In this document: positions 1 through 25,946 of the stretch, in pieces | Layout: every line of letters starts with the position of its first letter | Position numbering within the stretch: position 1 is the first letter of the stretch | IMG/VR virus record: IMGVR_UViG_3300026224_000021 | Source: a virus | Taxonomy: Duplodnaviria > Heunggongvirae > Uroviricota > Caudoviricetes | Length of the DNA: 34,928 nt | Reading direction: 5' to 3' (one strand) | Notes under the pieces: generated by a model | The model's input: only the letters and a program-made list of their open reading frames with translations | Databases searched by the model: none | Told to the model about the DNA's origin: nothing | Position numbers and translations under genes: made by a program

Positions 1-243
1 ATGTATACCTATAAAATGATTCAGGTGCCGCCGAATATTTCTGTAAAGGCAAAAGATAATAAAGCGGGGGTAGCTGCTGCATATCTTCAGAATGTTGTTA
101 ATGAACAGGCGGCGGATGGCTGGGAATTTCAACGGGTTGATACGATTGGTATAGAAGAGCAGCCGGGGTGTTTCGGTGGCGGAAAGGCGCAGTTTTTTCA
201 ATACTATGTGATTACTTTTAGAAAAAAAGTATCAGATGCTTAA
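1..243 (+). CDS. small hypothetical protein, host flank (may be 5'-truncated by the window edge)
   Basis: 80-aa ORF starting at position 1; its stop overlaps the start of the downstream YidD-like ORF; no family recognised by eye. Confidence 0.4.
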   Translation: MYTYKMIQVPPNISVKAKDNKAGVAAAYLQNVVNEQAADGWEFQRVDTIGIEEQPGCFGGGKAQFFQYYVITFRKKVSDA

Positions 244-469
244 ATGGCTTAGTATACGTCTGATTCTTTATTATCGTGCTCATGCGCCAGCCAGCATTCG
301 TAACAGATGTCGTTATACTCCAAGCTGTTCGGCTTACACTTTGGTGTCAATAAGGCGCTATGGCTTTTTTGAAGGCTGGCGATTAGGATTGAGCCGGATT
401 TATCGCTGTCGTCCGCCTAATGGTGGTGCAGATTACCCTCCTCATATTTGTAAATGTCGCAAATCGTGA
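236..469 (+). CDS. YidD-family small protein (membrane protein insertion efficiency factor-like)
   Basis: 77-aa ORF with the cysteine-containing signature RYTPSCSAY resembling the YidD motif (RFTPTCSSYG in E. coli YidD, recalled from memory); followed by a terminator. Confidence 0.55.
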   Translation: MLKWLSIRLILYYRAHAPASIRNRCRYTPSCSAYTLVSIRRYGFFEGWRLGLSRIYRCRPPNGGADYPPHICKCRKS

Positions 470-486
470 GCGCGTAAGAAAAAGAA

Positions 487-520
487 AACCCGCAGTTTTA
501 CGCTGCGGGTTTCTGCTTTG
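487..520 (+). terminator. Rho-independent terminator after the YidD-like gene
   Basis: inverted repeat cccgcag / ctgcggg (489-495 and 503-509) followed by T-rich tract tttctgcttt, 18 nt after the stop codon. Confidence 0.6.
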
Positions 521-1000
521 GGATGTGTATAGGGTGCCTTATCGGCCTTACCCTGGCAACCGATTGACGGGGAAGTTGCCTTCCCCGTCGCGGTTTTCTT
601 ACTGTCTACATTGTAAGAACGCCGCAAACTCCGCTCCCCAGAAGCTCATCCGTATCTCACACAGTGAACCGTGTAGCATCCAGATGATGAGGATTGCCGT
701 TACGCAGAACGTAATGGCCGTAAGCGATTTTTGCGACATAGCGCTTGCTCCTTTTTCGGGGAGGCGCTAACCTACGACTTGCGAAGGTTGTATGGCTAGG
801 GCCTCGGGTTAACGTTAAAGTTGACTCGGGGCCTTTCCACATTCGGCCTTCGGGTATTCCCTCCAGCCATCAGCCGAAAGGCACCCGCGCGAATTCTAGC
901 CTGGTTTTTTCCCTTGTTTCAATCCGTTGAGACTTATCAGCCTTCTGATGTAAAATTCCCGACCGCAGACATTATTCAGTCACGCATTTGATACATGCTT

Positions 1001-1027
1001 CCGCCGGCGTTCGCGCCGGTTTTTTTC
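1001..1027 (+). terminator. strong intrinsic terminator hairpin in the left flank
   Basis: perfect 6-bp stem ccggcg / cgccgg with ttcg loop (1004-1019) followed by seven T (1020-1026). Confidence 0.6.
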
Positions 1028-1508
1028 GTCCTGTTGCTGCATAGATCGTCATGCGCGATCGAGGCGCGGTATTGATCCTTTTTTCAGTTTAATTTTGACT
1101 CTCAATTTTACGCAGGCCGCGCCGCGTCTGACTTCGCTGTTTGATGGTTGTTTGATGCGATCCTTTCGTGATCGTTTTTTTGTCTCGCGTAAAGTATGAA
1201 AACTCTTTTAATATCATGCGGTTTCATTGCTCCTGCCATTTATGAGATCGTAAAAAACTCGCTGAAAACTGCAAAAAATTTCAAAGCGTGAAATTTCAGA
1301 TCTTCGCTTTTCCCTCAGTCGCTGCGCGGGCTGGCGGTCATTTTTGCACGGCAGAAAACTGAAAAAGTGTTTCGACACAAAACCCGCGGGTTGGAGGGGG
1401 TAGCGCGGTTTACGTCACCTCACGCTTTACGTCACACCGTTTACGCGGTGTGCGCATACAGCGCCAGAATGGCGCGCAGAACGCATTAATCAGGTGGCAG
1501 ATATGAAA

Positions 1509-1530
1509 ACGCACGGCCGAAGCCGTGCGT
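1509..1530 (-). terminator. putative terminator hairpin at the end of the tail operon
   Basis: perfect 9-bp stem acgcacggc / gccgtgcgt with cgaa loop about 40 nt past the stop of the 565-aa gene; the downstream U-tract on the minus strand is weak. Confidence 0.35.
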
Positions 1531-1569
1531 TGTGTGATGGGCGTTTATGTGGCTTTTATGTCCAGGTGA

Positions 1570-3267
1570 TCAGGCGATAAGGTCGCCGTATTTTTCGCGC
1601 AGGCTCGTAGCCTGCAGGGCATCTGCGGCAAGTTCGCCGCTGTTCATTGGTGCGCCAGTGTTGCTGTGGGTGTGGTTTGCTGTGTGCGTGGCCAGCAATT
1701 GAATCAGATCCAGAATATCAATCAACAACGTCAGCAGATTAAGTTCGGATTTTTCCCGTGAGCCACCGCGACCAATAAATACTGTCGGGGCTGTAAACTT
1801 CAGACCGCCGTCCGCCCGGCATATTCTGCGGCCTCCCACGTTTTCAGTCAGGTCCTGCTCAATCGTGGATATTGCTCCTTTGAGTTTAGTCAGCAAATCC
1901 TGCGCTACCATCTGGATATGCTCGCTGGCTGCGATCGCGTAATGGCCGGTAGTAAGGTGCTCTATTTGTCCTGCCGCCAGCTTGCTGGTTCCCAGAACAC
2001 TGGTTATGTCGTTTGCCCGTACTGTGGTTGTTCTGGTTGTTGTGGTGCGCTCTTCTGCATCACTGTTGATTGTGCGGGTGGCTGACTGCTCCCTGATTTG
2101 CTGGTCTGTTTCTCTGTGCCAGCTTCCGTCAGTCGTGACGCGCTGAAACACTTCTGCGCGCTGTTGCTGCAGTTGTTCGCCGGGCTTTACATCAGGCAGG
2201 TTATGGCCAGCGGGTAAGATTTGCCTGATAACAGGTTTATCCGGGCGCCCTTCAATGTTAGATATTTCCACGATGGTGCCTGCCGGCGGGTAGGCAAAAC
2301 ATCCCGCCTCGCTACCAGCCATCGGGACGGGGAGTGGGACTGCCGGGTAAACAGGCGTATCGCTTTTATCGTTGCCGTCCTCATCGAGCAGTTGCACGTC
2401 CACGGCGTAGCGTGGACGGAAGCTGTCGGCCACATCGCCCAGGGTGGCGGATTCCGTTGGTGCAATGACGCGCGCCAGCCTGGTGTGTAGTGTGCCGCTG
2501 GCCAGTTCCGGGAACTGTGTTTCCATCTGTCTGCGTAATGGTGATTTGGAGACAGGGCTGCCCGTGACGGTAAGGCGCTCCCACGTCAGAGTCATTTTCT
2601 CGTTGTTGAGGGCTACGCGGGTAATACGCCCGGCGGGAAGATTCACGCCCGGTCGCACAGTTTCCATGAACATGATGTCGATGCTGTTTCCGCCGCTTTG
2701 CCCGAGAGCGTACTGTTGCGGAATATCCGGCATCGTAATACTGGCAAATCGTGAATCAGCGGCGCTTCCCACAAATACAGAACCGTCCGGCATTGGGTGC
2801 CAGACGTAATCGCTGATACTGAATGCGCGCCCCAGCTGGCTGAGTAGCTGCGTTCCGCTGCCGCTGTGGGTGATGTAGGGGGTTGGTGTGTTGACATAAT
2901 CCGCGTCCGGGGTGATAAAAACGATGCCGCTTTGTCGTCCCAGATTATCTAACACCTCCCGCAACGTCGGGTGTTGCATGGAGCAGGGGAAATCAAAATC
3001 CAGCACAGCAGCTGCTTCACGGATAAAAAGGCGGCGCGAACCATTTTCGGCGGGTTGGTCGCGTTCAACGTAGCCGGAGAAATAGCGCCAGACTTCACCG
3101 TCACGGCCGAGATCAATTTGTACCATTGCGCCGGCAAGGCTTTTTTCTGGTGACAGATTATTAACAGAAATGAAGCCACGACCGGCAGCATTCAGGGTAA
3201 GAACAAGGTTTATATCGGCAATTTCCACCCGTTCGCCATTAATCATGCAGCGTTGTATCAATTTCAT
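1570..3267 (-). CDS. putative baseplate hub / central spike protein (gpV/gpD-like)
   Basis: 565-aa ORF at the distal end of the tail operon; C-terminal HTHSNTGAP resembles the His-containing apex motif of P2 gpV-type spikes (from memory); TTTTRTTTV low-complexity linker; start translationally coupled to the upstream gene. Confidence 0.45.
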   Translation of the reverse strand: MKLIQRCMINGERVEIADINLVLTLNAAGRGFISVNNLSPEKSLAGAMVQIDLGRDGEVWRYFSGYVERDQPAENGSRRLFIREAAAVLDFDFPCSMQHPTLREVLDNLGRQSGIVFITPDADYVNTPTPYITHSGSGTQLLSQLGRAFSISDYVWHPMPDGSVFVGSAADSRFASITMPDIPQQYALGQSGGNSIDIMFMETVRPGVNLPAGRITRVALNNEKMTLTWERLTVTGSPVSKSPLRRQMETQFPELASGTLHTRLARVIAPTESATLGDVADSFRPRYAVDVQLLDEDGNDKSDTPVYPAVPLPVPMAGSEAGCFAYPPAGTIVEISNIEGRPDKPVIRQILPAGHNLPDVKPGEQLQQQRAEVFQRVTTDGSWHRETDQQIREQSATRTINSDAEERTTTTRTTTVRANDITSVLGTSKLAAGQIEHLTTGHYAIAASEHIQMVAQDLLTKLKGAISTIEQDLTENVGGRRICRADGGLKFTAPTVFIGRGGSREKSELNLLTLLIDILDLIQLLATHTANHTHSNTGAPMNSGELAADALQATSLREKYGDLIA

Positions 3268-3839
3268 GTTTTCCCTTCCTCTTTCACGCTCCCGATACCA
3301 ACAGCATCCAGACCAGAGCCAACGGCATCATTGATTTTTTTCCAGAACGAACTTTGCGTATTCATGCCTTTGTCTGGTGCCTGTTCGCTACCGTTCTGGG
3401 TCTGCTGTCTGGCGATGGTTTTCTGCGAACCGCTACGTGCAGACGCTTTCTCTGGCACGCTTAATTTTTCCCTGAGAGTAAAGGTGACCTGCCAGTGCAT
3501 TTTTCCCTGTTGTTCCGTGGCATCAATGCCACCAGAAAATACCCCCTGTCGCATATTGATTGCCTTCGCGGTAGCGTTAGCAATGCGATATGTTTTTTTC
3601 GCGCCATTGCTTTCTGTTGCCTCCGCAAGCTGAAAAATACGGGTCAGAATAGCTTCATCGTTAAAATCAATAACCCCCGACACGCGCAGCTCTTTAGCCT
3701 TGCTTCCCTGCTGGGCGCTCGTGGTGCTGGTTGACTGTCCGGACATATCTTTGTCCGGTAGTTGCATGGTGGCGCTGACGGTGATGTTGCGCAGCAGAAT
3801 GGCTTCCCCGTCAAGCGCAAGGACAATCATCTGGGTCAT
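3264..3839 (-). CDS. hypothetical tail-associated protein
   Basis: 191-aa ORF, Ser/Thr/Gln-rich, coupled into the tail operon between the fiber cassettes and the spike; no family recognised. Confidence 0.4.
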   Translation of the reverse strand: MTQMIVLALDGEAILLRNITVSATMQLPDKDMSGQSTSTTSAQQGSKAKELRVSGVIDFNDEAILTRIFQLAEATESNGAKKTYRIANATAKAINMRQGVFSGGIDATEQQGKMHWQVTFTLREKLSVPEKASARSGSQKTIARQQTQNGSEQAPDKGMNTQSSFWKKINDAVGSGLDAVGIGSVKEEGKT

Positions 3840-4524
3840 GTAGTGCCTCCCTTAGTGATGAGAGATCATCGCCGACGAACAGCATCACAGCTGTAAAAAC
3901 CCACTCAGGGTGTGGGATGTTTTTTTGTATCAGCACTGCGGCCTGGCTGAGGGCTCCCTTGTAGCAAAAGCGCCACACCGGGCAAAATTTTTGCCGGAGT
4001 GCAGCCTGCTGATCAGCGATTTCCTGTAGAGCTTTATCTCTCGCATTCATGAACTGATGCAGTGATGATGACAGTGTTTCCGGTGATGTGGCGGCAGGAG
4101 TGGCTGCCTGTGCAATGGTTGCCGCCAGCGACATGCTGCGAGTGGTCTGTGTCGACAGCATTATCGGTTCCGGAAGTGATGTTGCCGGTCTGGCGGGGAT
4201 TTGCATTCTGCTGATGGCCAGTGAAAGCTGGCTGGAGATCATGCGGGACATTCGTCCCACCTCCGGCAACGGAAATGCGCCTGAAAATTGCCTGGCGAGT
4301 GATAAAAACTCGCCAGCAGAAGGAGCGCAAAATAACAGCGCCACAATGTCCTTTTCTGTGTTTTCTTTCAGATAGGGTAAAAGTGCAGATACAGCATTTT
4401 CGGGGCTGAGATAACGCCCCGATGGTTTGATGTTTCCGGTATTTTCTGACCATGGATGCAGGCAAACCACAGAGCATTTAATGTTCATGGCTGACGGGCG
4501 CAGAATTGCCTTTTCCCATTTCAT
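3811..4524 (-). CDS. hypothetical protein in the tail operon
   Basis: 237-aa ORF whose start overlaps the stop of the upstream chaperone gene (ATGA); no recognisable motif. Confidence 0.4.
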   Translation of the reverse strand: MKWEKAILRPSAMNIKCSVVCLHPWSENTGNIKPSGRYLSPENAVSALLPYLKENTEKDIVALLFCAPSAGEFLSLARQFSGAFPLPEVGRMSRMISSQLSLAISRMQIPARPATSLPEPIMLSTQTTRSMSLAATIAQAATPAATSPETLSSSLHQFMNARDKALQEIADQQAALRQKFCPVWRFCYKGALSQAAVLIQKNIPHPEWVFTAVMLFVGDDLSSLREALHDPDDCPCA

Positions 4525-5096
4525 TCTGACTCTCCAGCCTGAAAAGCGCGGATGTCGGCAAGATTATTAAGGCTATCCAGCACGTCCTTCATCTGTCGCT
4601 GACGGCGATAAATCTCGTCATTGCGATCGACCTGTGCCTGCGCCATTGCTGTCGCCAGTTCTTCCAGTTCCGGCATTGACAGTTTCACCTGTTGATTATC
4701 GGCGTCACCCCACGCCATAACGTCCCGCGTCGTGTCAGATTTCGCCGCCATTACTACCGGATAAAGACGGGCCATTGAGTCGGGGCCAGCGTTCCAGGTG
4801 CGACCGTTCCATTCGAACGTGAACGGCTGCGCTTCCCGTTCTGTACGCCACGCCTCGATTTCCCGCTTTTTGGCATCTTTTGTCGCAGCGATAAGTTCCG
4901 GCGTGACGGTGAACGGGGCGATTTCGCCCCATTTGCCGCTTTGCAGCTCTTCCCAGATGTGCTGGCCTGTTGTTGCCGTGTCTTCTGGTGTGGCAGTGTA
5001 CGGAATGGCTTCTTCCATCCCTTCAAAAAGCACCCCGCAGTCAATTGCACCGGACTCGGTGTAGCGGGGACTGGTGATTTTTTTAATTTGCATCAT
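4521..5096 (-). CDS. tail fiber assembly chaperone (Tfa-like), second cassette
   Basis: 191-aa ORF immediately downstream of tail fiber gene 5093-6385; size and position typical of Tfa/gpG-type chaperones. Confidence 0.55.
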   Translation of the reverse strand: MMQIKKITSPRYTESGAIDCGVLFEGMEEAIPYTATPEDTATTGQHIWEELQSGKWGEIAPFTVTPELIAATKDAKKREIEAWRTEREAQPFTFEWNGRTWNAGPDSMARLYPVVMAAKSDTTRDVMAWGDADNQQVKLSMPELEELATAMAQAQVDRNDEIYRRQRQMKDVLDSLNNLADIRAFQAGESE

Positions 5097-6385
5097 GAAA
5101 CCCTCACAAACAAAGAAACCAGCCCCCGATTATAAAACGTGACATCCGGGCCTCCTGATAAAGCGAGATATGTGCCAGGCAGGGTACCTCCGTAGACAAA
5201 TGACCTGGCAGCGGCACTAAATCCTGAACCGCGATACTCAGCTTCGAAGACCACCTGCCGGAGTCTTGATCCCGGCACAAATTGTGTGCGAAGTAATGTG
5301 ACATCACTGCTGCCGCTATCTGGCAGGTATGCGGCAAGAACCAGGCTACCCGGTTGCGGAGCACGCTGTGATGTGGTGTCTCCTGCACATAACAGTTGTC
5401 TCAGTCTGTCGCGTGACCAGAATAACCGCGACCATGCTTCTGGTAGTCTCGCCGGAGACATTGATTTTGAAACCAGCACCTGATATTTAGCCGGGCCCTC
5501 ACCAGCCTGGCCAGTGTATTCGGCATCGCCATGAAAGGTTATACACCGACCATCGCTTTCGGTGCTGTTAGTGTGCATTCCACTTCGTATTTCTATATCT
5601 ACAAGCCCCCTGAAATAGGGTTGCCCCCCGTCATACGCAATGATGGGCTTATACGAACTACCAGACCCACCATACTGCGTTACCGCATAACGCCCTGGTG
5701 TGACCTCAAATACCCATTTAAGAAATTCGGCGGGGCCATTTTGCGCGCTGAAATACACGACTTCCGACGAAGAGAATAAATGCCCGTATCCGAATGCACC
5801 GGGTAACGCCAGACGGCCTGCGGTGCGGTCGTAGATATCGCTCTGAACATCAAGCAAAGCAGCACCTTTCAACCCCAGATTGTCTCGGGATTCCTGTTGC
5901 GCCTCTTCCCCCTCTGCTGCAATTTCTGACAGTCGGTTAGGAGCTTTCAGCATTGATTTCAGCTCGGGGGTAATATCCACCTGCCAGCTCTGTGGAGGAA
6001 CGGTAATTTGCGCAGCCTGAGCAATGCCGCTGTATATAATCGTGAAATTACGAATAAGTGACTCGCCAGTATGTTTCTGGCGAACAGGGGTTTTTATTAC
6101 GCCGCACAGTGTTCTGCTGGCCTGATGGATGAGGCAAATCCAGTCATAGCTGAATGCACAGCCATCAGGAACAACTGCGCTACACACAATATTGTTCGGG
6201 TTTAACTGGCCATAGGTCAGTTCATTCACAGCATATGTGATTTTTTCTTCCGGAACGGTATTATCTTCGCGCGTTGGTTCCCGCTCCATCAGAGCAAAAA
6301 TAATAGCGTCAGGGCGTGCAGGTAAATTACTGGCTGCGCATTCAGCAACCCACTTTTCAAATGCTTTCGTCAACAGTGCGCTCAT
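5093..6385 (-). CDS. tail fiber protein, second copy
   Basis: 430-aa ORF whose N-terminal domain is paralogous to that of the 608-aa fiber (shared ARPD...F and VIKTPVRQK / IAHTPRQQK blocks) with a divergent C-terminus. Confidence 0.6.
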   Translation of the reverse strand: MSALLTKAFEKWVAECAASNLPARPDAIIFALMEREPTREDNTVPEEKITYAVNELTYGQLNPNNIVCSAVVPDGCAFSYDWICLIHQASRTLCGVIKTPVRQKHTGESLIRNFTIIYSGIAQAAQITVPPQSWQVDITPELKSMLKAPNRLSEIAAEGEEAQQESRDNLGLKGAALLDVQSDIYDRTAGRLALPGAFGYGHLFSSSEVVYFSAQNGPAEFLKWVFEVTPGRYAVTQYGGSGSSYKPIIAYDGGQPYFRGLVDIEIRSGMHTNSTESDGRCITFHGDAEYTGQAGEGPAKYQVLVSKSMSPARLPEAWSRLFWSRDRLRQLLCAGDTTSQRAPQPGSLVLAAYLPDSGSSDVTLLRTQFVPGSRLRQVVFEAEYRGSGFSAAARSFVYGGTLPGTYLALSGGPDVTFYNRGLVSLFVRVS

Positions 6386-6391
6386 TGCTTC

Positions 6392-6946
6392 TTAATTCTC
6401 GCTAATGTTCTGCGGTAATTCTGGCCATACAATCGCGGCATACGATGCTTTATCTGTAACCTGGCTGAAAGTCATCTGCTGTAGTGCTTTTGCATAAATA
6501 CGGCATGCTTTCAGTTTTTCCCTGTCTTCGTCACTGATTAATCCCAGCAGCAGGTCTTTTTCCCATTCGCTGGTCATGATGCTGGCCTGTTGTAACAGGG
6601 CATCACGCTCATCTTCCGCTTTAAGTTTGTAGTCAAAAACAAATGCATCATTGCGGTAGAACCAGTAACCCGACGCCTCAATGCGACGATTGGCGGTAAT
6701 ATCCGGTAGCTCAATCACGCTTTTATTTTCCGGGCAGATTGAGGTGATGTCTTTTCCAACCCAGACCACTTCGCCAGTTTCAACATAAATAACTTTCAGA
6801 GTGTCTGGCTGAAATTTTTCCTGGGCTTCGTGCCATTCCTGACCATCATCAGAGAACAGCCACAATAAAAATTTATGCTGTCGCGCCAGCTGGTATTGCT
6901 CAATTGTTTTAGGGTTTTGTACCGTAAGATTTTTTAAGTGCATCAT
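6392..6946 (-). CDS. tail fiber assembly chaperone (gpG/Tfa-like), first cassette
   Basis: 184-aa ORF directly downstream of fiber gene 6949-8775; C-terminal IVWPELP-type ending typical of Tfa proteins. Confidence 0.6.
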   Translation of the reverse strand: MMHLKNLTVQNPKTIEQYQLARQHKFLLWLFSDDGQEWHEAQEKFQPDTLKVIYVETGEVVWVGKDITSICPENKSVIELPDITANRRIEASGYWFYRNDAFVFDYKLKAEDERDALLQQASIMTSEWEKDLLLGLISDEDREKLKACRIYAKALQQMTFSQVTDKASYAAIVWPELPQNISEN

Positions 6947-6948
6947 AA

Positions 6949-8775
6949 TTACAAACTCGCTACATTCCGCCAGACGCCATTAATCAGAACCTGCACCGGG
7001 CGGGCATTGGCCCAGTCCATACTTTCACCACCATCAAGACCGCTGATAAGGTGACCTGATGGTGCGTTCCCGCCACGCCCAATACCAATGGCACTGCCCA
7101 GACGCACATCCTGTACACCGCCTGTTTTGGTCTGATAGCGGGCATCAAAGTTTCCGTAGTTTGATGGAACCATCTGCCCGTTTACAGCGAATGTTATACT
7201 GTTATCCGTATTTCTCTGGCTGTAAAAATGCCAGCCGGAATCATCACCAAGCTCTGCAACTACAGGTCGGGATGAATTACCCCATAAATTAAACGCTGCG
7301 TTTTTCGTGGAGTTGTTGGCGCTGGATAACGTGAATTTTTTAGCATTTCCGGCCTGAATATTTTTTAACGCTATTGCCACACCATTCTGGAAACGAAATA
7401 CATGCTGTCCATTCGCATAAACATCCAGAATGCCGTCGCCATTCTGTTTCAGCCCGGTATCGTTATCCCCGAAAGCAATTGAGTTTCCACCCAGCGCGTT
7501 CTGAACGCCGATACCCAGCGCACCATTGACCTGAGAACCGCCGCCAACGGACACTTTATGCGACATGGATATCTCACCCGTCCGCAGGTTAATGGTGAAC
7601 GGACGGAGAGGACCAATATCACCACTCTCGCCCTGACCTTCACTGGTAGGGATAAGATGAAGACACTCTTCCGAACGACGAAAAATCAGGCCAAAGGCTT
7701 CGTTGAAAATCCTCAGCGCATTAACACCACGGATTTTTAGTTCCCCGGTCATGGTGTCGCCGTCGCGCTCAACAGCGCCTTTTGCCTTATCCATTGCGGC
7801 TTTTACTGCTTTTGATGTGGCGGCGCGGTCTTCTGCGTCGCTGTCGGTGGAGTTGCTGTACTGCGCAAAGCCTTTCTCCTTCAGTGTTGCGTCCGGATGA
7901 TGGCGGGATTTTTCGTGCTCTGCCAGTGCATTGCTTTGTTCCTCGTCGGGTGTCTCCGGGCGCAGGTCCTGTGGGCCATCTGCTGTCATTTTTGCAAGTG
8001 GCGCGACAAAGTGTCGGAAGCCGTTACCGTCTGTATAGGACGCATGTTCCTGGCGGGCGCAGAACGTAAAAACGGTATTCCATTCGCCGGTAACAAATCC
8101 CTGCCAGCTTGCATCAATCCAGAGGGTATCCCCGACCGCAGCCGGCAGGCTGTAAGGTTCGCGCAGACTGACGCGCAGACCTCCCACATAGCCCACGCCG
8201 GCGGCAACAGTGGCGGTACCGTCCTGATAGCTGACCTGAAAACCATCCCCCAGAAAAGCGGCTTCACCATAGTGATCAAATGCCAGCAGTCGGCGGGCTT
8301 CATCCATTCCGGTCAGGCGTGCAGTGAAATCAATCTGCCAGACATCAGCACTGACATCGATATGCATCGCTGCGGCCGCGCCGTCAAACTCCATGGAAAA
8401 CGTGCGGATCAGGTTGTTTCCCTGCACGCCGTTTGCTGTTTTAATTTTTTGCTGGCGAGGCGTGTGTGCAATCATGCAGAGCACGCCGCTTTCTTCGTTC
8501 AGCAGGCCGATCCAGTTGTATTCGAAGTCACCGACTGTCGTGTCCAGAATGATGGAAAACGCGGTCGCATTCGGTGACAGGAGGCCGTACTGGGTGACCG
8601 GCGCACGATACTGAATCCTTGATTTGTCAGGGAGCGTTTCGTCGCGGGGGATCTCCGCAGACTCATCCTGTTCCGGAATATATGCAAAAACAAATGTATC
8701 CGGGCGCGCGGGTTTTCCACTGATGATTTGATTTGCGCACCAGTGTTCGTACTGTTCAGTAATAATCGTGCTCAT
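6949..8775 (-). CDS. tail fiber protein (gpH-like)
   Basis: 608-aa ORF with the conserved tail-fiber block STDSDAEDRAATSKAVKAAMDKA seen in enterobacterial phage fibers; follows the I-like gene as in P2. Confidence 0.7.
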   Translation of the reverse strand: MSTIITEQYEHWCANQIISGKPARPDTFVFAYIPEQDESAEIPRDETLPDKSRIQYRAPVTQYGLLSPNATAFSIILDTTVGDFEYNWIGLLNEESGVLCMIAHTPRQQKIKTANGVQGNNLIRTFSMEFDGAAAAMHIDVSADVWQIDFTARLTGMDEARRLLAFDHYGEAAFLGDGFQVSYQDGTATVAAGVGYVGGLRVSLREPYSLPAAVGDTLWIDASWQGFVTGEWNTVFTFCARQEHASYTDGNGFRHFVAPLAKMTADGPQDLRPETPDEEQSNALAEHEKSRHHPDATLKEKGFAQYSNSTDSDAEDRAATSKAVKAAMDKAKGAVERDGDTMTGELKIRGVNALRIFNEAFGLIFRRSEECLHLIPTSEGQGESGDIGPLRPFTINLRTGEISMSHKVSVGGGSQVNGALGIGVQNALGGNSIAFGDNDTGLKQNGDGILDVYANGQHVFRFQNGVAIALKNIQAGNAKKFTLSSANNSTKNAAFNLWGNSSRPVVAELGDDSGWHFYSQRNTDNSITFAVNGQMVPSNYGNFDARYQTKTGGVQDVRLGSAIGIGRGGNAPSGHLISGLDGGESMDWANARPVQVLINGVWRNVASL

Positions 8776-20644: not shown

Positions 20645-22432
20645 ATGGCGTATTCTGATGAGGTGATTGCTGCTGCAAAATCGCTCTATCTGAAAAGGCA
20701 CACACCAAAAGAAATACAAAAGAAACTCGGACTGAACAGCCCGCGAATTGTTTATTACTGGGCGACAAAGTTTGAGTGGTACACGCAGCTCAATACGGAA
20801 GGCGTGGAAGATGTTATCGCCCGGCGTCTCGCTGTACTGGCGGAGCGTGACCATAAAACGCCGGAAGAGCACGATGAACTCGACCGCCTGATTGGTCATC
20901 ACGTCAAACTAATGTCGGTCAGAAACAAGCACACGGAACGAATGGCTGAGATTGCGCGAATGGGAGTGGACATCCCCCAGCCTGGCCGTTATGGAAAAGA
21001 AGAACGCGGAGAAAAAGGCGCAGGGAAGAAAGAGCGTCCCCGCAAAACTAATGACGTTTCCGGACTGACTGCTGAAAGTTTTGAGCCGTTTACGAAGAAG
21101 TTGTTTGCTTATCAGTTGCGCCTGCGTGAAAACAAATTCCGCCGCGTACGCAACCTGCTTAAATCCCGCCAGATTGGGGCGACGTATTACTTCGCGTTTG
21201 AGGCATTTGAAGATGCAGTATTAACCGGCGACACACAGATATTTTTATCGGCATCAAAACGTCAGGCCGAAGTGTTCCGTACTTATATTGTAAAAATTGC
21301 ACAAACAGAGTTTGGCATTCCCATTAAAGGCAATCCGGTTAAGTTAAGTAATCTGGCTGAACTGTATTTTCTGGCGACCAACAGTAACACAGCGCAGTCA
21401 AACAGCGGCCACCTGTATATTGATGAATACCTGTGGATCCCCGGTTTTCGCCGTCTCAATGAAGTGGCATCAGGGATGGCCACCCATAAACACTGGCGCA
21501 TTACCTATTTCTCCACGCCGTCATCCAAAACACACCAGGGTTACCCGTTCTGGTCTGGCGATGAATGGCGCAAAGGCGATCCGAAACGAAAAGGGGTTGA
21601 GTTTCCGTCCTTTGATGAGCTGCGCGATGGTGGGCGTGAATGTCCGGATGGTCAGTGGCGCTATGTGGTTACGCTGGAAGATGCCATTGCCGGCGGCTTT
21701 AACCTTGCTGACATCAACGAGCTGCGCGAGCGATACAACGAAACAGCGTTCAATATGCTGTTTATGTGTGTGTTTGTGGATGACAAAGAGAGCGTCTTTA
21801 AATTCGATGATCTTGTGCGTTGTGGTGTTGATGTCAGTACGTGGGAGGATTTTCACCCGGAAGAGCCCGTGCCATTTGGTAACCGTGAAGTGTGGGGCGG
21901 CTTTGACCCTGCGCGCTCCGGCGATAACGCCACATTTGTTGTGCTGGCACCGCCGCTGGTTGCGGCAGAACGATTCCGCGTGCTGGAAAAACACCACTGG
22001 CGCAGCATGTCATTCCAGTTTATGGCAGAGCGTATACGCAGCATTAAAGCACGCTATAACATGACGTTTATCGGCATTGACGTCACCGGTCTTGGCTACG
22101 GTGTCTTTGAGCTGGTTCAGGGGTTTGCCCGCCGTGAAACAGTGGCCATTCATTACAGCGTGGAATCCAAAAACCGCCTGGTGATGAAGATGCTGGATCT
22201 GATTTACGCCAACCGTATTGAGTGGGATGAAGAAGCCACGGATATTCCGGCATCGTTCCTGGCCATTCGTCAGGAATCCACCAACAGCGGCAATAAAGTC
22301 ACTTTCACCGCCGAACGTAGCGAAGAAACCGGGCACGCTGACATCTTCTTTGCCATAGCTCATGCCGCAAGTAATGAACCCCTGAACTATAAGCACAAGC
22401 GCAAATCAACATGGATCCTGTCAGATGAGTAA
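20645..22432 (+). CDS. P: terminase large (ATPase) subunit (gpP-like)
   Basis: 595-aa ORF divergent from O and followed by the portal gene; P2 P is about 590 aa; AGGTGAGG Shine-Dalgarno upstream. Confidence 0.8.
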   Translation: MAYSDEVIAAAKSLYLKRHTPKEIQKKLGLNSPRIVYYWATKFEWYTQLNTEGVEDVIARRLAVLAERDHKTPEEHDELDRLIGHHVKLMSVRNKHTERMAEIARMGVDIPQPGRYGKEERGEKGAGKKERPRKTNDVSGLTAESFEPFTKKLFAYQLRLRENKFRRVRNLLKSRQIGATYYFAFEAFEDAVLTGDTQIFLSASKRQAEVFRTYIVKIAQTEFGIPIKGNPVKLSNLAELYFLATNSNTAQSNSGHLYIDEYLWIPGFRRLNEVASGMATHKHWRITYFSTPSSKTHQGYPFWSGDEWRKGDPKRKGVEFPSFDELRDGGRECPDGQWRYVVTLEDAIAGGFNLADINELRERYNETAFNMLFMCVFVDDKESVFKFDDLVRCGVDVSTWEDFHPEEPVPFGNREVWGGFDPARSGDNATFVVLAPPLVAAERFRVLEKHHWRSMSFQFMAERIRSIKARYNMTFIGIDVTGLGYGVFELVQGFARRETVAIHYSVESKNRLVMKMLDLIYANRIEWDEEATDIPASFLAIRQESTNSGNKVTFTAERSEETGHADIFFAIAHAASNEPLNYKHKRKSTWILSDE

Positions 22433-23459
22433 AAAGAAAAAATACCCCGTGTTACACGATGGCGTGGCAAAAAAAACAGCCAGCAAAATGACTTTTATTG
22501 AATTTGGTGACCCGGAACCGGTCGCTGCATGGGGCTGTTATTACGGCTCGCTCTGGGATGGCTATAACGGCTGGTACACGCCGCCCATTGAGCGCATGGA
22601 TCTCGCCATGTTGTCCAATATCGCACCGTATCACGGCGCGGTATTGCGTGCGCGCGTCAATATGATCATGCAGGGTTTTCGGGGTGGTGGTGGTATGACA
22701 CACGCCGCCATGGCGGCAGCAGTAACCAATCTGCTGATATTCGGGGATATGGGGTTGCTTAAAGTGCGCAATGGCTTCGGTCGGGTGGTGCGCCTGCATA
22801 CGTTACCTTCTCTGTACCTGCGGCGTAACAACGAGGGTGGCACGGTGATTGTGCAGGCGGCACTGGAAGATCTCGTTTACCCGCCAGGCGAAGTGGTGTT
22901 CGTGGCCATTTATGACCCGCAACAGCAGGTTTACGGTGTCCCGGATTATATTCACGGGATGGAATCCGCCATGCTGAATGTGGATGCCACCCGCTTTCGC
23001 CGCAAGTATTACAAGAACGGCGCACATCTTGGTTATATCCTGTATTCCACTGACCCGGACATGGATCCCGAGCTCGAGGCGGAATTCCGTAAAAAGATAG
23101 AGGCGTCAAAAGGGGCGGGCAATTTTAAATCCATGTTTATCAATATACCGGGCGGAGACAAAGAAGGCGTTAAGGTGATCCCTATCGGGGATTCAGGTAC
23201 AAAAGATGAGTTCCTGAATATAAAAACCATCAGTGCCCAGGATCAGCTCGTTGCGCACCGTTTCCCACCCGGACTTGCCGGCATCATTCCCGCAAATACG
23301 GCCGGGCTTGGTGACCCACTGAAATCCCGCGAGGCATATTACAGGGATGAGGTTATTCCGATGCGCCGCCTGATTATGGAGGGAATCAACAGTGACCCGG
23401 ATATCAGGCGACTGGGGGAGGTGAAATTTATTCTTGATTTTGATGAACCCATGGAGTGA
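22425..23459 (+). CDS. Q: portal protein (gpQ-like)
   Basis: 344-aa ORF overlapping the end of P by 8 nt; same length as P2 Q. Confidence 0.8.
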   Translation: MSKKKKYPVLHDGVAKKTASKMTFIEFGDPEPVAAWGCYYGSLWDGYNGWYTPPIERMDLAMLSNIAPYHGAVLRARVNMIMQGFRGGGGMTHAAMAAAVTNLLIFGDMGLLKVRNGFGRVVRLHTLPSLYLRRNNEGGTVIVQAALEDLVYPPGEVVFVAIYDPQQQVYGVPDYIHGMESAMLNVDATRFRRKYYKNGAHLGYILYSTDPDMDPELEAEFRKKIEASKGAGNFKSMFINIPGGDKEGVKVIPIGDSGTKDEFLNIKTISAQDQLVAHRFPPGLAGIIPANTAGLGDPLKSREAYYRDEVIPMRRLIMEGINSDPDIRRLGEVKFILDFDEPME

Positions 23460-23524: not shown

Positions 23525-23782
23525 ATGCGCAGACAGAAAGCGCGATGTCATTGCTGCGGTGCACATGCAGTGATTGAGAAAACAGCCTGGAAAACCGATC
23601 AGTTTGCTGATGTGTATTACCGTTGCACCCGTCTCGAGTGCGGACATACCTGGGTGATGAATCTGACCTACTCGCACACACTGGTGCCCAGCGGGCTGGA
23701 GAATGGTGTGTTAAAGCTGTTGATTGAGCGGATGCGTCCGGAAGAAAAACAAATGGCTCTGGAGTTGTTGCAGGCCGGATAG
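23525..23782 (+). CDS. ogr: Ogr/Delta-type zinc-finger late transcription activator
   Basis: C-x2-C-x22-C-x4-C spacing (CHCC ... CTRLEC) identical to the P2 Ogr zinc-finger pattern; the internal Met at 23525 has a GGGAGGTG Shine-Dalgarno. Confidence 0.7.
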   Translation: MRRQKARCHCCGAHAVIEKTAWKTDQFADVYYRCTRLECGHTWVMNLTYSHTLVPSGLENGVLKLLIERMRPEEKQMALELLQAG

Positions 23783-23804
23783 CTGACGCGCTTCGCTTGT
23801 CCAA

Positions 23805-23852
23805 CCCGGAACGGGCGCACAAAGAATTTGCGCACCCGTTCCGGGTTTTCTT
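23805..23852. terminator. terminator hairpin between convergent ogr and accessory operon
   Basis: cccggaacgg ... ccgttccggg stem with an inner gcgc pairing, followed on the plus strand by ttttcttattc. Confidence 0.6.
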
Positions 23853-24222
23853 ATTCAATGGCAGACAACTGATAATTTGTGTCTTCCTGCAGGCTGGTTA
23901 AAGAAATATTATCCAGTGCAGCCAGAATAACGTGCTGTGTATATAATCCGGAACATTTCATTGCCCGGACAATATCACCAACACTGTAATTTTCTTTTGT
24001 CGGGATATATCCACCACCCGGGCCGCGTGTGGCTTTTACCAGGCTACTTTCCCGTAAATATCTGAATATTTGCTCCAGATATGACAGTGAAACGGTTTCT
24101 TTGCTTAATTGCCGGAGCGAGATTGGCTTTCCGGTGTACTGTTTCACAAATTTAATCATTACCATAACTGCAACTGATGCACGCTGGCTTCCGGAATTAT
24201 CTTTCATCATGATTACTTCCAT
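23851..24222 (-). CDS. Rrf2-family transcriptional regulator, no Fe-S cysteine cluster
   Basis: SLSYLEQIFRYLRESSLVKATRGPGGGY matches the Rrf2 helix-turn-helix signature (compare IscR [29 protein letters not shown], from memory); only one Cys in the C-terminal half; start coupled as TAATG (alternative ATG at 24207). Confidence 0.7.
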   Translation of the reverse strand: MEVIMMKDNSGSQRASVAVMVMIKFVKQYTGKPISLRQLSKETVSLSYLEQIFRYLRESSLVKATRGPGGGYIPTKENYSVGDIVRAMKCSGLYTQHVILAALDNISLTSLQEDTNYQLSAIE

Positions 24223-24527
24223 TAATGGCATAAATTGATGGAGCGGGTCAGTGAATAAAGAGGCAATACATTCCATCCCTTAGAGCGCCAGCTGTCTGCA
24301 ACATCTTTACTTCTTGTTATCGCCGGTATTCCAATAGGATTATTTGCGTGCATCCATGCCACTGGCTCTGCTTCCAGTGATGCAAGTGCGATTTCCAGTG
24401 CGATTAACATATTGTGATCGTCTTCATCAAGACCGAACGGGATGTCTTCGCGCCACGATTTAAACTCTGTGATTTTACGTTGTAACCATTCTTTGGTAAT
24501 GGTGGACATAGTTACTCCTGTTTTCAC
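24222..24527 (-). CDS. hypothetical protein coupled between parR and the Rrf2 gene
   Basis: 101-aa ORF whose ATG overlaps the ParR stop (ATGA) and whose stop overlaps the Rrf2 start (TAATG). Confidence 0.5.
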   Translation of the reverse strand: MKTGVTMSTITKEWLQRKITEFKSWREDIPFGLDEDDHNMLIALEIALASLEAEPVAWMHANNPIGIPAITRSKDVADSWRSKGWNVLPLYSLTRSINLCH

Positions 24528-24838
24528 TTCGGGAAAAACGCCTGAATATTCTTTTTCACCTGCTGCATATGGGGGGCGCTGTCTGCTGCTGGTTGCGCCG
24601 GTTTTTCAGGCTGTACTGGTAGCGGTGGCATCCGTATTTCGTCTTCTGACCATTCTGCCAGTGAATACGCCAACGCGGGGGTGCGTTTTATAAGAGCCAG
24701 TCCGGCCAGAAAAGCCGCGCGTTGTGCGCGGCTGCGTTCGGAGGCTGGCAGGCTGTCGAGGTAACTGCACGCCTCCCGTTCGCTCTTGACGGCGGCGGGC
24801 TTCAGATAGAAACTTATCCGTCTGGTTGGTGTCGTCAT
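24524..24838 (-). CDS. parR: ParR/StbB-like ribbon-helix-helix partition adaptor
   Basis: about 105 aa from the internal Met; ISFYLKPAAVKSEREACSYLDSLPASERSRAQRAAFLAGLAL parallels plasmid R1 ParR IAFKLNPDV...CDTLDSIPQGERSRLNRAALTAGLAL (from memory); lies directly after the parM homolog. Confidence 0.7.
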   Translation of the reverse strand: MTTPTRRISFYLKPAAVKSEREACSYLDSLPASERSRAQRAAFLAGLALIKRTPALAYSLAEWSEDEIRMPPLPVQPEKPAQPAADSAPHMQQVKKNIQAFFPK

Positions 24839-24842
24839 TGGT

Positions 24843-25802
24843 TTACTCCTTGTCCATTGCGTACAGCCCATTAACCAGAGCAAACTGTGGCACCCCGTCC
24901 GCGATGAAAGTTGCATTAACTCCGCAGGCTTCGCGGATAGCGGGTGCCACAATCTCCGCTCCTCCACCGACAACCATCACCCGCCCGTAACCCGAAAAAC
25001 CCGCCAGCGCGCGGATCACGCGTTGTTTCAGTGTTTCTTCCTTTTCACGAATAACTGCCATCAGGCTGGCGTAATGCGCGTCATTGTGGATGTGCTGGCG
25101 CAGCCAGGCTTCATCATGGCGATGTTCGATAATGGTATTGGCGATGTGGTGACTGGTGCGCATACCGTTAGTGGCCATCACCGACAGTACGGCATCGGCC
25201 ATCAGAGAAACGCCTACGTGTGGATCGCAAAACACCTGGCTGATACCTGCCAGTTGCCCCTGAACCTTTGCCACATCCAGCGTGGTTCCGCCCAAATCCA
25301 CAATCAGCAGGGATTCAAACGGACTCATGTCAGCCAGTGCCTTAAAGCCAGCCGGAATGGATTCAGGCATAACCCGCACGTTACGGATAGTGAATGCCTC
25401 GCCGTTCTGGTACTCCACCGGGCGCATAACGTTCGCTTTTTTGCGGCTGATGTTGGCCATGTCCGGCTGTGCGTTTGTATCGAAATACTCGCTCAGTGGC
25501 AGGGTGACAACCACATCCACTTCCTGTGGCGTGATGCCTGATTTGACCAGCGCGTGATGAATGGCAATGACATTCACATCGCTGTACTGGTATTGCGTGT
25601 CGGTCGTCTGGATAAAGCGATCGCTGACCGGATCAAAACCATAGCGCACGCCATCAAGCATGTAGTTCGCGGGCTGCGTGCCACCGAACGGCGCAGACCA
25701 TTCCGACTTGAAGCTGTTCGGGCTGATGGCGTTGCGGCGTTCGCCGTTCTCAGTCCATGCCAGCTTGATGTTGGTGGAGCCGTCGTCGATACAAATTTTC
25801 AT
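24843..25802 (-). CDS. parM: ParM/StbA-like actin-family segregation ATPase
   Basis: 319-aa ORF; N-terminus MKICIDDGSTNIKLAW matches R1 ParM MLVFIDDGSTNIKLQW, with further matching blocks ISPNSFK, YSDVNV..HHAL, KVMRP; AAGGA Shine-Dalgarno upstream. Confidence 0.8.
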   Translation of the reverse strand: MKICIDDGSTNIKLAWTENGERRNAISPNSFKSEWSAPFGGTQPANYMLDGVRYGFDPVSDRFIQTTDTQYQYSDVNVIAIHHALVKSGITPQEVDVVVTLPLSEYFDTNAQPDMANISRKKANVMRPVEYQNGEAFTIRNVRVMPESIPAGFKALADMSPFESLLIVDLGGTTLDVAKVQGQLAGISQVFCDPHVGVSLMADAVLSVMATNGMRTSHHIANTIIEHRHDEAWLRQHIHNDAHYASLMAVIREKEETLKQRVIRALAGFSGYGRVMVVGGGAEIVAPAIREACGVNATFIADGVPQFALVNGLYAMDKE

Positions 25803-25831: not shown

Positions 25832-25946
25832 CGTTTACGGGATTTTTAAATCCCGCTTTCGCCTGTTTTGTGCGCACTTCATGTTTTATGGCGCGTTTTT
25901 TGCTCATTTACGGGATTTGTGAATCCCGTTTCTGTCTGTTTTTTGT
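25832..25946. repeat. parC-like centromere/operator: two 41-bp direct repeats each containing an 8-bp palindrome
   Basis: 25832-25872 and 25906-25946 share tttacgggattt(t/g)t(a/g)aatcccg...ctgtttt with inner palindrome CGGGATTT...AAATCCCG; repeat 1 is just upstream of parM, repeat 2 lies inside the 3' end of gene A. Confidence 0.6.

Follow-up and report, generated by a model that had tools for sequence, protein, structure and literature searches.

IscR is a global regulator that links Fe-S supply, oxygen and oxidative stress to suf, hydrogenases, fimbriae and capsule, as well as to type III secretion in Yersinia. The Escherichia coli protein (162 aa) has Cys92, Cys98, Cys104 and His107 as its Fe-S ligands and a long dimerisation helix (residues 105-123). 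In crystals of apo-IscR, residues about 84-104 are disordered (PMC5411485), and Glu43 limits the apo form to type-2 sites (residue roles: PMC5411485, PMC9338935). CymR of Bacillus subtilis and Staphylococcus aureus is a cofactor-less Rrf2 regulator with no Fe-S cluster; it retains the full-length dimerisation helix and requires CysK (O-acetylserine thiol-lyase) for DNA binding. P2-like phages have a hotspot between gpA and gpQ, whose cargo includes old, tin, retrons, other defence systems, parMR and cdt, with non-defence cargo also present (Rousset 2022; PMC9122126). The Ea22, Eaa and DUF551-type early proteins of lambdoid phages are small, modular and mosaic, as described for Ea22 (PMC10834534).

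The stretch of viral DNA analysed here (34,928 nucleotides, hereafter the window) belongs to an E. coli prophage that is P88-like (Xuanwuvirus, P2-type). Its minus strand carries a long early operon, cox…gpA–parM–parR–orf95–Rrf2, in which profile matches identified the replication endonuclease gene gpA (25879..28686, minus strand; PF05840, 426 bits), the actin-like segregation ATPase gene parM (24843..25802, minus strand) and a StbB-type parR (24524..24838, minus strand; PF10784). The original prediction had placed two open reading frames at the operon end, and both are present there on the minus strand, tightly packed, with the Rrf2 gene last. The operon does stop at this point: a hairpin at 23803..23847, 21 bp on the minus strand, lies 4 nt past the Rrf2 stop, with folding energies of -36 and -43.3 kcal/mol (z = -5.3 and -6.7). 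From these values and a terminator scan, it is the minus-strand operon end and also the intrinsic terminator of the convergent gene ogr (23525..23782, plus strand), which codes for an ogr/delta-type zinc-finger late activator (PF04606; PGAP annotation). Upstream of ogr lies the portal gene gpQ (22425-23459; PGAP annotation), and the orf95–Rrf2 cassette is placed between gpA, the left border of the hotspot, and gpQ, its right border. In related prophages that share its portal/ogr lineage (P88, 569R5, Shae_phiSM, O157 493/89, 17-07187, ECL27977 and E7-1N7), this position holds other cargo. The GC content of the cassette is 43-45%, compared to about 50-59% in the flanks, and a promoter scan of the cassette gave only a single match, a weak sigma-70-like sequence within orf95, whereas shuffled sequences gave more. 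Both cassette protein accessions are found in supplementary file 6 of PMC9122126, apparently Table S5A. The exact arrangement is already known from Rousset 2022, as hotspot cargo that was listed there uncharacterised and had never been examined.

The longest open reading frame of the Rrf2 gene (23851-24276) corresponds to 141 aa, but the true start is almost certainly the ATG at 24210 or 24207, giving a protein of 119 or 118 aa. We refer to this gene (23851..24210, minus strand; alternative start 24207) as mini-Rrf2, or 'mini-IscR'. A GGAAG is found 5 nt upstream of the start, which is 11 nt past the stop of orf95; the PGAP call is 119 aa (WP_000974052); and in locus L026 the earlier of these Met codons is replaced by Thr. 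A profile search, which could have overturned the original assignment to the Rrf2 family, upheld it: the product scored 50.1 bits with Pfam Rrf2 (PF02082; cut-off 30), over profile positions 2-87 of 132 only, which is the winged helix-turn-helix. It also matched phrog_24072 (E = 2e-47). The score with the NCBIfam model TIGR00738 (rrf2_super), 52.8 bits, fell below the cut-off of 73.3, since the C-terminal half is missing. Among NCBIfam models, that of IscR (TIGR02010) scored best, above those for the Rrf2 superfamily, for CymR and for NsrR; the equivalog cut-offs were not reached for IscR (TIGR02010: 58.6 vs 207.55; PRK10857: 45.6 vs 275) or CymR (NF047409: 48.5 vs 195). The best PDB sequence matches were IscR structures (4HF0, 4CHU and 4HF1; E about 1e-10). 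An AlphaFold2 (AF2) model reached a pLDDT of 81 overall and about 90 over residues 10-80, which form an H-wHTH fold, and its best Foldseek matches were apo-IscR (TM 0.73-0.74; 4HF0: 0.73), with Rrf2 proteins making up all of the top 35 (TM 0.58-0.74). Mini-Rrf2 is thus an Rrf2-fold winged-helix protein. IscR is its best match in sequence, profile and structure, and the clusterless apo C92A form (the same three PDB entries) shares its fold over the N-terminal 85 residues; CymR comes next in sequence and structure. Unlike IscR, mini-Rrf2 is phage-encoded and does not adjoin isc genes.

The alignment to IscR, which had been proposed as a check for the missing ligand set, contained a gap of about 22-26 aa that takes out the ligands C92, C98, C104 and H107 along with the proximal half of the dimer helix. 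This gap lies opposite IscR residues about 90-117 in 21/21 aligned family members (the window protein and 20 relatives), and the segment lost largely coincides with the disordered part of the apo-IscR crystals. The alignment points to deletion of the whole ligand-bearing segment and not just its mutation. Mini-Rrf2 is accordingly distinct from IscR in that it cannot carry a canonical Fe-S cluster, is never 'holo' and has no means of sensing Fe-S status. The original prediction had called a cluster unlikely after counting one Cys in the C-terminal half, and this claim is strengthened; the 119-aa protein contains a single Cys (C86), which is not conserved among relatives. The further suggestion that the protein senses something else has no support, with the sensory segment gone and no conserved replacement ligand residues in the family alignment.

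In the part that remains, the AF2 model has only short helices (93-100 and 104-109) after alpha4. The C-terminal tail of IscR is absent, and about half of helix 105-123 is deleted according to the family alignment. Mini-Rrf2 has thus lost half of the Rrf2 dimerisation helix, which CymR keeps in full, so that a homodimer, and hence binding of a 25-29 bp palindrome, is putative. The segment aligned to IscR 113-133 retains the hydrophobic pattern (VLxALDxVxIxxL vs LTGFLNNITLGEL), and L99 is invariant across the family. A protein decoy could be built in this way: the retained distal dimer helix would pair with IscR of the host in a heterodimer, or would titrate a partner of IscR, and so poison or redirect the host regulator, while loss of the proximal helix half should weaken homodimers. 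We regard such a decoy as improbable, as invariance in the family is concentrated in the DNA-contact residues, which is unexpected for a pure decoy.

These residues are S41, S43, Y44, E46, G63, G65-67 and Y68, all family-invariant, together with the near-invariant Q47, R62 and P64. An offset of +3 maps conserved residues of mini-Rrf2 to IscR S40, Y41, E43, Q44, R59, P61 and the wing glycines, positions that are DNA contacts in IscR (PMC5411485, PMC9338935). The recognition-helix and wing contacts of IscR (S40, Y41, E43, Q44, R59, GPGGGY) are identical in mini-Rrf2. Those that read the type-2 site, Ser40, Glu43, Gln44 and the wing Arg59/Pro61/Gly, are retained as S43, E46, Q47, R62, P64 and G65-67, invariant or nearly so, and the wing is IscR-type (RGPGGGY), unlike that of CymR. 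The YLEQ motif of the recognition helix is also present in CymR, so an IscR-like specificity is plausible but uncertain.

Among 13 alleles of mini-Rrf2, the variable sites were 15 synonymous and 4 non-synonymous (pN/pS 0.08, P = 3.6e-7), and the gene is under strong purifying selection. The family comprises about 20 clusters at 50% identity with full-length matches (among 1.84 billion representatives) and occurs on 284 IMG/VR contigs. A profile search gave family members at least 128 bits, and the nearest non-family proteins among the matches listed at most 94 bits; the latter were full-length Rrf2 proteins (about 150-185 aa), nearly all of the named ones being annotated as IscR-type Fe-S assembly regulators. 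An intact open reading frame is found in 37-45 E. coli genomes and also occurs in Salmonella and E. albertii; a single-protein scan of species genomes returned E. albertii only. Members reside in early operons of temperate enterobacterial phages, including lambdoid prophages, where mini-Rrf2 either heads the leftward genes just downstream of cI or follows the replication genes. Mini-Rrf2 is therefore a discrete, loop-deleted and phage-restricted family, and the earlier remark that Rrf2 regulators are not usual in phages is wrong for this subtype. A functionless, decaying remnant of a captured iscR is a reading that we consider very improbable: the protein is shorter than every characterised Rrf2 protein and misses the NCBIfam superfamily cut-off, but the low pN/pS with its 15 synonymous changes, the same deletion architecture across family members at 30-50% identity, the confidently predicted core fold and the intact reading frames in all three hosts argue against decay.

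Taken together, we lean towards mini-Rrf2 being a hard-wired, apo-IscR-like DNA binder of IscR descent that is translated last in the early operon, with orf95 as unrelated cargo. An IscR ancestor would have lost its Fe-S ligand loop together with the proximal half of the long dimerisation helix, whereas its DNA-reading head and wing, and the distal stretch of the dimer helix, stayed intact. With the sensor segment gone, the result would probably be a constitutive, signal-blind DNA binder. Recognition of IscR type-2-like DNA, as by a permanently 'apo' IscR, appears most likely, since none of the IscR residues reported to read type-2 sites, Glu43 included, has been lost. We infer the DNA specificity and the dimeric state from these comparisons, and our leading guess for the target, itself an extrapolation, is the host IscR regulon. 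It is possible, though we advance it only tentatively, that temperate enterobacterial phages use mini-Rrf2 as a sensor-less apo-IscR mimic which, whether made from early operons or at a low level by lysogens, occupies host type-2 sites (suf and hya; fimbrial, capsule or T3SS promoters depending on the host). If so, the regulon for Fe-S, oxidative stress and virulence would be uncoupled in part from the real Fe-S status, and the virus would hijack a host metabolic regulon via a copied regulator minus its sensor. Mini-Rrf2 would then be a possible prophage route to altered host stress physiology or surface structures, and an IscR head without sensor in a conserved phage family would represent a simple natural experiment on 'locked apo' IscR activity.

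A different proposal is that mini-Rrf2 binds phage operators, for example damping ogr or tuning early transcription, and has no role on the host chromosome. Its position in the early operon in every context seen fits this proposal, as does its abutment on ogr in all P2-type arrangements seen but one, the Salmonella version, in which a 209-aa gene intervenes. The best match in the window to an IscR type-2 matrix built from six published sites (23588..23616, plus strand; 15.1 bits) is also inside ogr, 235 bp from the Rrf2 gene. However, 4.5% of random windows attain 15.1 bits with this matrix, and the site does not co-vary with the gene: it is gone in L018, which encodes an identical Rrf2 protein, but L102, which has no Rrf2 gene, contains it and at a higher score. 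We therefore rejected it as a mini-Rrf2 target; it is probably a coding coincidence. Other scans of the window gave no match to the IscR type-1 consensus, 21 matches to a Nesbit-type palindrome with up to 1 mismatch (11.5 expected), none in regulatory position, and 40 matches to WWWWCCxYAx7TRxGGWWWW with up to 3 mismatches (20 expected), which are scattered in coding DNA (best, 6894-6918). Neither set was accepted as target evidence, and around the gene itself the window showed no enrichment of published type-2 motifs. In 8-15 representative family loci with 4 kb flanks, the WWWWCCxYAx7TRxGGWWWW motif and its CC…GG core were no more frequent than expected and followed no positional pattern. 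This lack of positional enrichment of IscR-like palindromes near family members, and the spread of the family across phages with unrelated regulatory circuits, also speak against a phage-internal regulator, which we judge rather unlikely. Control of the par module, another role that had been suggested for the Rrf2 protein, was rejected as well: L026 pairs the same Rrf2 gene with a different parR (product only 54% identical), and the eight lambdoid loci examined showed no par genes at a distance of up to 4 kb from mini-Rrf2.

The neighbouring gene, orf95 (24222..24509, minus strand), starts 14 nt after the parR stop. It had been described as a motif-free protein of 101 aa. The open reading frame is real, but its product is more likely 95 aa, with AGGAG 5 nt upstream of the ATG and a corresponding PGAP call (WP_000104418). 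Although Pfam (E <= 1; Ead/Ea22 PF13935 included) and NCBIfam gave no match, orf95 matches five PHROGs (among them 660, 60, 5117 and 3323) and has >270 homologues, with the names Eaa or DUF551; its relation to Eaa/DUF551-type proteins is one of phmmer matches and PHROGs only. Comparison with locus L015 revealed that orf95 combines the N-half of 'orf137' with the C-half of 'orf88'. Window positions 25000-24358 equal L015 2804-3446, window positions 24395-23401 equal L015 4094-5088, and L015 has 647 extra bases (3447-4093) between both copies of a 38-bp repeat. In the window, this 38-bp stretch, common to both parental genes, is the recombination joint of the chimera (24358..24395) and falls inside the orf95 region coding for the conserved IALASLEAEPVAW motif. 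By this comparison, orf95 arose through recent recombination, as a deletion chimera joining two mosaic genes of the Eaa/Ea22 type, which corrects its annotation.

The original prediction had coupled the two proteins as partners, and a rival reading, in line with what hotspot cargo would suggest, is that orf95 and Rrf2 form a two-gene anti-phage or superinfection-exclusion system. The hotspot harbours old/tin, retrons and other defence systems, the pair is translationally tight (11-nt gap), and the near-neutral or diversifying evolution of orf95 (pN/pS 0.82) could reflect an arms race. We find such a system unlikely. Non-defence cargo shares the hotspot (Rousset 2022), and, in contrast to defence cargo there, the cassette has no recognisable defence domain, with no enzymatic or membrane effector domain and no match for Rrf2, orf95 or ogr in PADLOC-DB 2.0 at E <= 1. 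The same Rrf2 gene is preceded by one to three different Eaa-like genes in different prophages, and an orf95-like gene was absent within 4 kb at 69/69 more distant mini-Rrf2 loci. Since orf95 is a chimera, evolves near-neutrally and is absent beside all of these distant loci, it is unrelated cargo and not a functional partner of mini-Rrf2. Nor can a function be transferred to it from Ea22, Eaa or DUF551 proteins: orf95 and the Ea22/Eaa-type proteins have in common a helical module at the N-terminus and an invariant ALASLEAEPVAW joint, and C-terminal modules are swapped, and orf95 is without the DUF551 that some homologues bear and without a long coiled coil. The AF2 model of orf95 consists of a helical hairpin and a small beta-beta-alpha-beta unit. 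It had no match in the PDB, and its BFVD matches were only uncharacterised phage proteins or accessory modules, for example N15 gp45 and an N-terminal module of a MazZ-domain protein.

The gene at 23851-24210 on the minus strand had been predicted to encode an Rrf2-family regulator, and this assignment is borne out by a match of its product to Pfam PF02082 (Rrf2) at 50.1 bits (cut-off 30). The match reaches no further than position 87 of the 132-position profile, and the score with the NCBIfam superfamily model is 52.8, below its cut-off of 73.3. We place the likely start at ATG 24210 or 24207 (119 or 118 aa) rather than at that of the 141-aa longest ORF, because a GGAAG lies 5 nt upstream of the ATG, the PGAP annotation is 119 aa long, the N-termini in the family alignment coincide with this start, and a related locus (L026) carries Thr in place of the first Met. 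As predicted, the protein has a single Cys (C86). The proposal that it carries no Fe-S cluster was strengthened by aligning the protein with IscR of E. coli and further IscR-type proteins, which showed the three-Cys ligand set to be absent and the ligand block to be missing outright (residues 8-84 of the E. coli IscR sequence used are in agreement with the PDB alignment). One block of ~22-26 residues, corresponding to IscR residues ~90-117, is absent from this protein and its phage relatives; the four ligands (C92, C98, C104, H107) fall inside it, as does the first half of helix 105-123 (ligands and helix numbering from PMC5411485). In apo-IscR crystals, much of the corresponding segment is disordered (PMC5411485). 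Retained are the recognition helix (SLSYLEQIF, aligned to a 9-residue IscR stretch), the wing (RGPGGGY), helix 4, and a distal helical segment (VILAALDNISLTSL vs. LTGFLNNITLGEL in IscR). AlphaFold2 predicted a confident winged helix-turn-helix (wHTH; pLDDT ~90) followed by two short helices only; the top structural matches were apo-IscR and IscR-DNA complexes (TM 0.73-0.74), with CymR, RsrR, and NsrR next, and IscR entries also matched best by sequence among solved structures. The sensory module is excised from this protein, which we call mini-Rrf2. Three chromosomal, IscR-annotated proteins of ~175 aa from Betaproteobacteria (P0016, P0019, and P0042) also lack all three Cys ligands; unlike mini-Rrf2 they keep the full-length dimer helix, and they are a second, independent route to a clusterless IscR.

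Searching 1.84 billion representatives with a profile built from mini-Rrf2 and a 51%-identical relative, we found ~20 clusters (95-135 aa) with full-length matches, while the next-best matches span the wHTH only. Family members score at least 128 bits and the next proteins at most 94 bits; the latter are full-length Rrf2 proteins, nearly all named ones being annotated as IscR-type. The deletion is common to all family members, and none has a conserved Cys set. The protein also matches phrog_24072 (function unknown; 2e-47), and relatives occur on 284 IMG/VR contigs. The statement that phages do not usually carry Rrf2 regulators thus fails for this subtype, given these clusters, contigs, and PHROG. 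Among 80 fetched contigs, 11 are P2-type with a nearly identical Rrf2 gene and the rest are lambdoid-type prophages. There, the gene occupies one of two sites: downstream of a cI-like repressor, heading the leftward genes ahead of a RecE-like exonuclease and int, an arrangement shared by Klebsiella phage Kp4865-4 and Citrobacter phage Chris1; or beyond the replication genes, next to the gene for a conserved 224-268-aa protein. The latter protein always directly precedes mini-Rrf2 at that site (L029, L032, L039, and L010), and in the first three of these loci it begins with or contains METVLDALKAMGKA….

Selection was evaluated by comparing alleles taken from E. coli, Salmonella, E. albertii, and IMG/VR. 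The 13 distinct Rrf2 alleles differ at 15 synonymous and 4 non-synonymous sites (pN/pS 0.08; binomial P = 3.6e-7 vs. neutral), whereas the 8 distinct alleles of orf95, the small gene just upstream, differ at 4 synonymous and 12 non-synonymous sites (pN/pS 0.82; not different from neutral); these are crude segregating-site counts, uncorrected for phylogeny, and the contrast is large nonetheless (Fisher P = 0.002). That the Rrf2 gene is a dead remnant is therefore extremely improbable, being excluded by this selection. Almost all family-invariant positions are DNA-contacting positions of IscR (PMC5411485; PMC9338935), corresponding at an offset of +3 to IscR S40, Y41, E43, Q44, R59, P61, and the wing glycines. 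Glu43 of IscR contacts the CC of type-2 sites in a bidentate manner and bars apo-IscR from type-1 sites (PMC5411485). Mainly because these contact residues, including Glu43, are conserved, we propose an IscR type-2-like DNA specificity, and the best-supported reading is that the phage early operon would yield an IscR-like DNA binder that lacks the sensor and is constitutively active. From the same conservation, the protein may act on type-2 sites of the host IscR regulon, although we hold this only tentatively. A decoy that heterodimerises with host IscR seems improbable. A purely phage-internal regulator is somewhat unlikely too. Scans of the window and representative family loci with published IscR motifs showed no enrichment near Rrf2 genes. 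With a type-2 matrix built from six sites (PMC4055776, Table S4), the best match in the window lies inside ogr (23588-23616, plus strand; 15.1 bits), a score within the leave-one-out range of real sites and reached by 4.5% of random windows. It is conserved in most, not all, Rrf2-carrying prophages; since it is lost in a prophage with an identical Rrf2 protein (L018) and kept in one without the gene (L102), we rejected it as a coding coincidence. The mini-Rrf2 reading is cheap to test.

The window represents a P88/Xuanwuvirus-like prophage of the P2 type, and its cassette region (orf95 and the Rrf2 gene) is 100% identical to that of a prophage beside pheL/pheA in E. coli EC42405. After cox (33075-33539), the minus strand carries genes for DUF4761, DUF4754, MarR-like, and Ead/Ea22-like proteins, an Ash-family ORF, gpA (25879-28686), parM, parR, and orf95, with no obvious break as far as the Rrf2 gene. 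Because of this unbroken run and a hairpin (23803-23847) that starts 4 nt beyond the last stop codon, and which also provides the convergent ogr/delta gene with its intrinsic terminator, the Rrf2 gene was correctly placed at the operon end. The interval between gpA and portal gpQ is a P2-type hotspot for accessory and anti-phage genes, about one-quarter of P2-like phages having a partition system there; both cassette proteins are listed in that study, where the arrangement was catalogued and not studied (PMC9122126). Relatives carry different genes at this position, and the cassette has a GC content of 43-45% vs. ~50-59% in the flanks. The rep-parM-parR portion of the window is ~95% identical to phage P88 and relatives. 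Of 5426 complete E. coli genomes, 1305 have a P88-type rep-par module and only 45 the cassette; these 45 overlap almost fully with the 43 genomes having this particular portal-ogr module. The Rrf2 gene is missing from two members of this lineage, indicating that it is common yet dispensable cargo. It is also found alongside a parR that encodes a protein of just 54% identity, which argues against the suggestion that it controls the par module.

The original prediction had also coupled the regulator to a 101-aa protein with no recognisable motif. The start of this gene (orf95; 24222-24509, minus strand) is most likely ATG 24509, giving 95 aa; an AGGAG lies 5 nt upstream, the ATG is 14 nt past the parR stop, and PGAP concurs. 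While orf95 indeed has no match in Pfam, NCBIfam, or PADLOC, it matches several PHROGs and >270 proteins, many named Eaa or DUF551-containing, or mis-named valyl-tRNA synthetase. Their alignment revealed three shuffled modules about an invariant ALASLEAEPVAW motif. In L015-L017, the gene order is parR-orf137-orf95b-orf88-Rrf2, and our orf95 corresponds to the N-half of orf137 joined to the C-half of orf88. The window and L015 align in two flanks (98.4% and 99.6%) overlapping by 38 bp (24358-24395), and in L015 two copies of these 38 bp (3409-3446 and 4094-4131), encoding the motif IALASLEAEPVAW in two paralogous genes, are separated by 647 additional bases (3447-4093), which L015-L017 contain and the window has lost by deletion. 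This arrangement indicates that orf95 arose by deletion through recombination between the direct repeats; the DNA coding for IALASLEAEPVAW therefore also serves as a recombination joint that shuffles modules of mosaic phage proteins. Elsewhere, between one and three different genes of the Eaa/Ea22 type precede the same Rrf2 gene, and an orf95-like gene was found within 4 kb at none of 69 more distant family loci. The predicted fold, a helical hairpin with a small beta-beta-alpha-beta unit (pLDDT 84), matched nothing in the PDB; the viral models that resemble it are either uncharacterised proteins or accessory modules within larger phage proteins. Given the chimeric origin, the varied preceding genes, and the distant loci, we conclude that orf95 is neighbouring cargo rather than a coupled partner; the 224-268-aa protein of the lambdoid prophages would be a better candidate. 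That the two genes form a defence system is hardly likely, as it is weakened by this origin and the absence of any effector. Taken jointly, we consider it highly probable that mini-Rrf2 is IscR-derived, cluster-less, functional, and part of a phage family to which orf95 is unrelated. The gene itself already carries an Rrf2-family regulator annotation and is listed in the hotspot catalogue, so its existence is not new; our literature search found no description of a phage-encoded Rrf2 or IscR. What appears to be new is its recognition as an IscR derivative from which precisely the sensor loop has been removed, the conserved family that such derivatives form in temperate phages, and the origin of its neighbour as a recombination chimera.

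Several further features were observed. At the equivalent hotspot position, phage P88 gp19 (L002, 3447-3779; 110 aa), mis-annotated as a carboxylate-amine ligase, contains a C4 zinc finger of the ClpX type (PF06689, 64.5 bits). In the cassette as found in Salmonella enterica prophages (L011-L014), an extra gene (4946-5575) on the opposite strand lies between the Rrf2 terminator and ogr; its 209-aa product has a weak DUF6338 match below the Pfam cut-off. A complete ParM/ParR (StbA/StbB) plasmid-partition module (24524-25802, minus strand) resides in this prophage, which has an integrase and is chromosomal, beside pheA. Finally, a C4 antisense RNA (29419-29506, minus strand; Rfam 80.5 bits) and the Hfq-binding RNA isrK (29542-29616, minus strand; 64.3 bits) lie adjacent within the 5' part of the Ash-family ORF (28693-29673), and the pair resembles a c4/ant-like immunity element of the P1/P7 type, here within a P2-type prophage.
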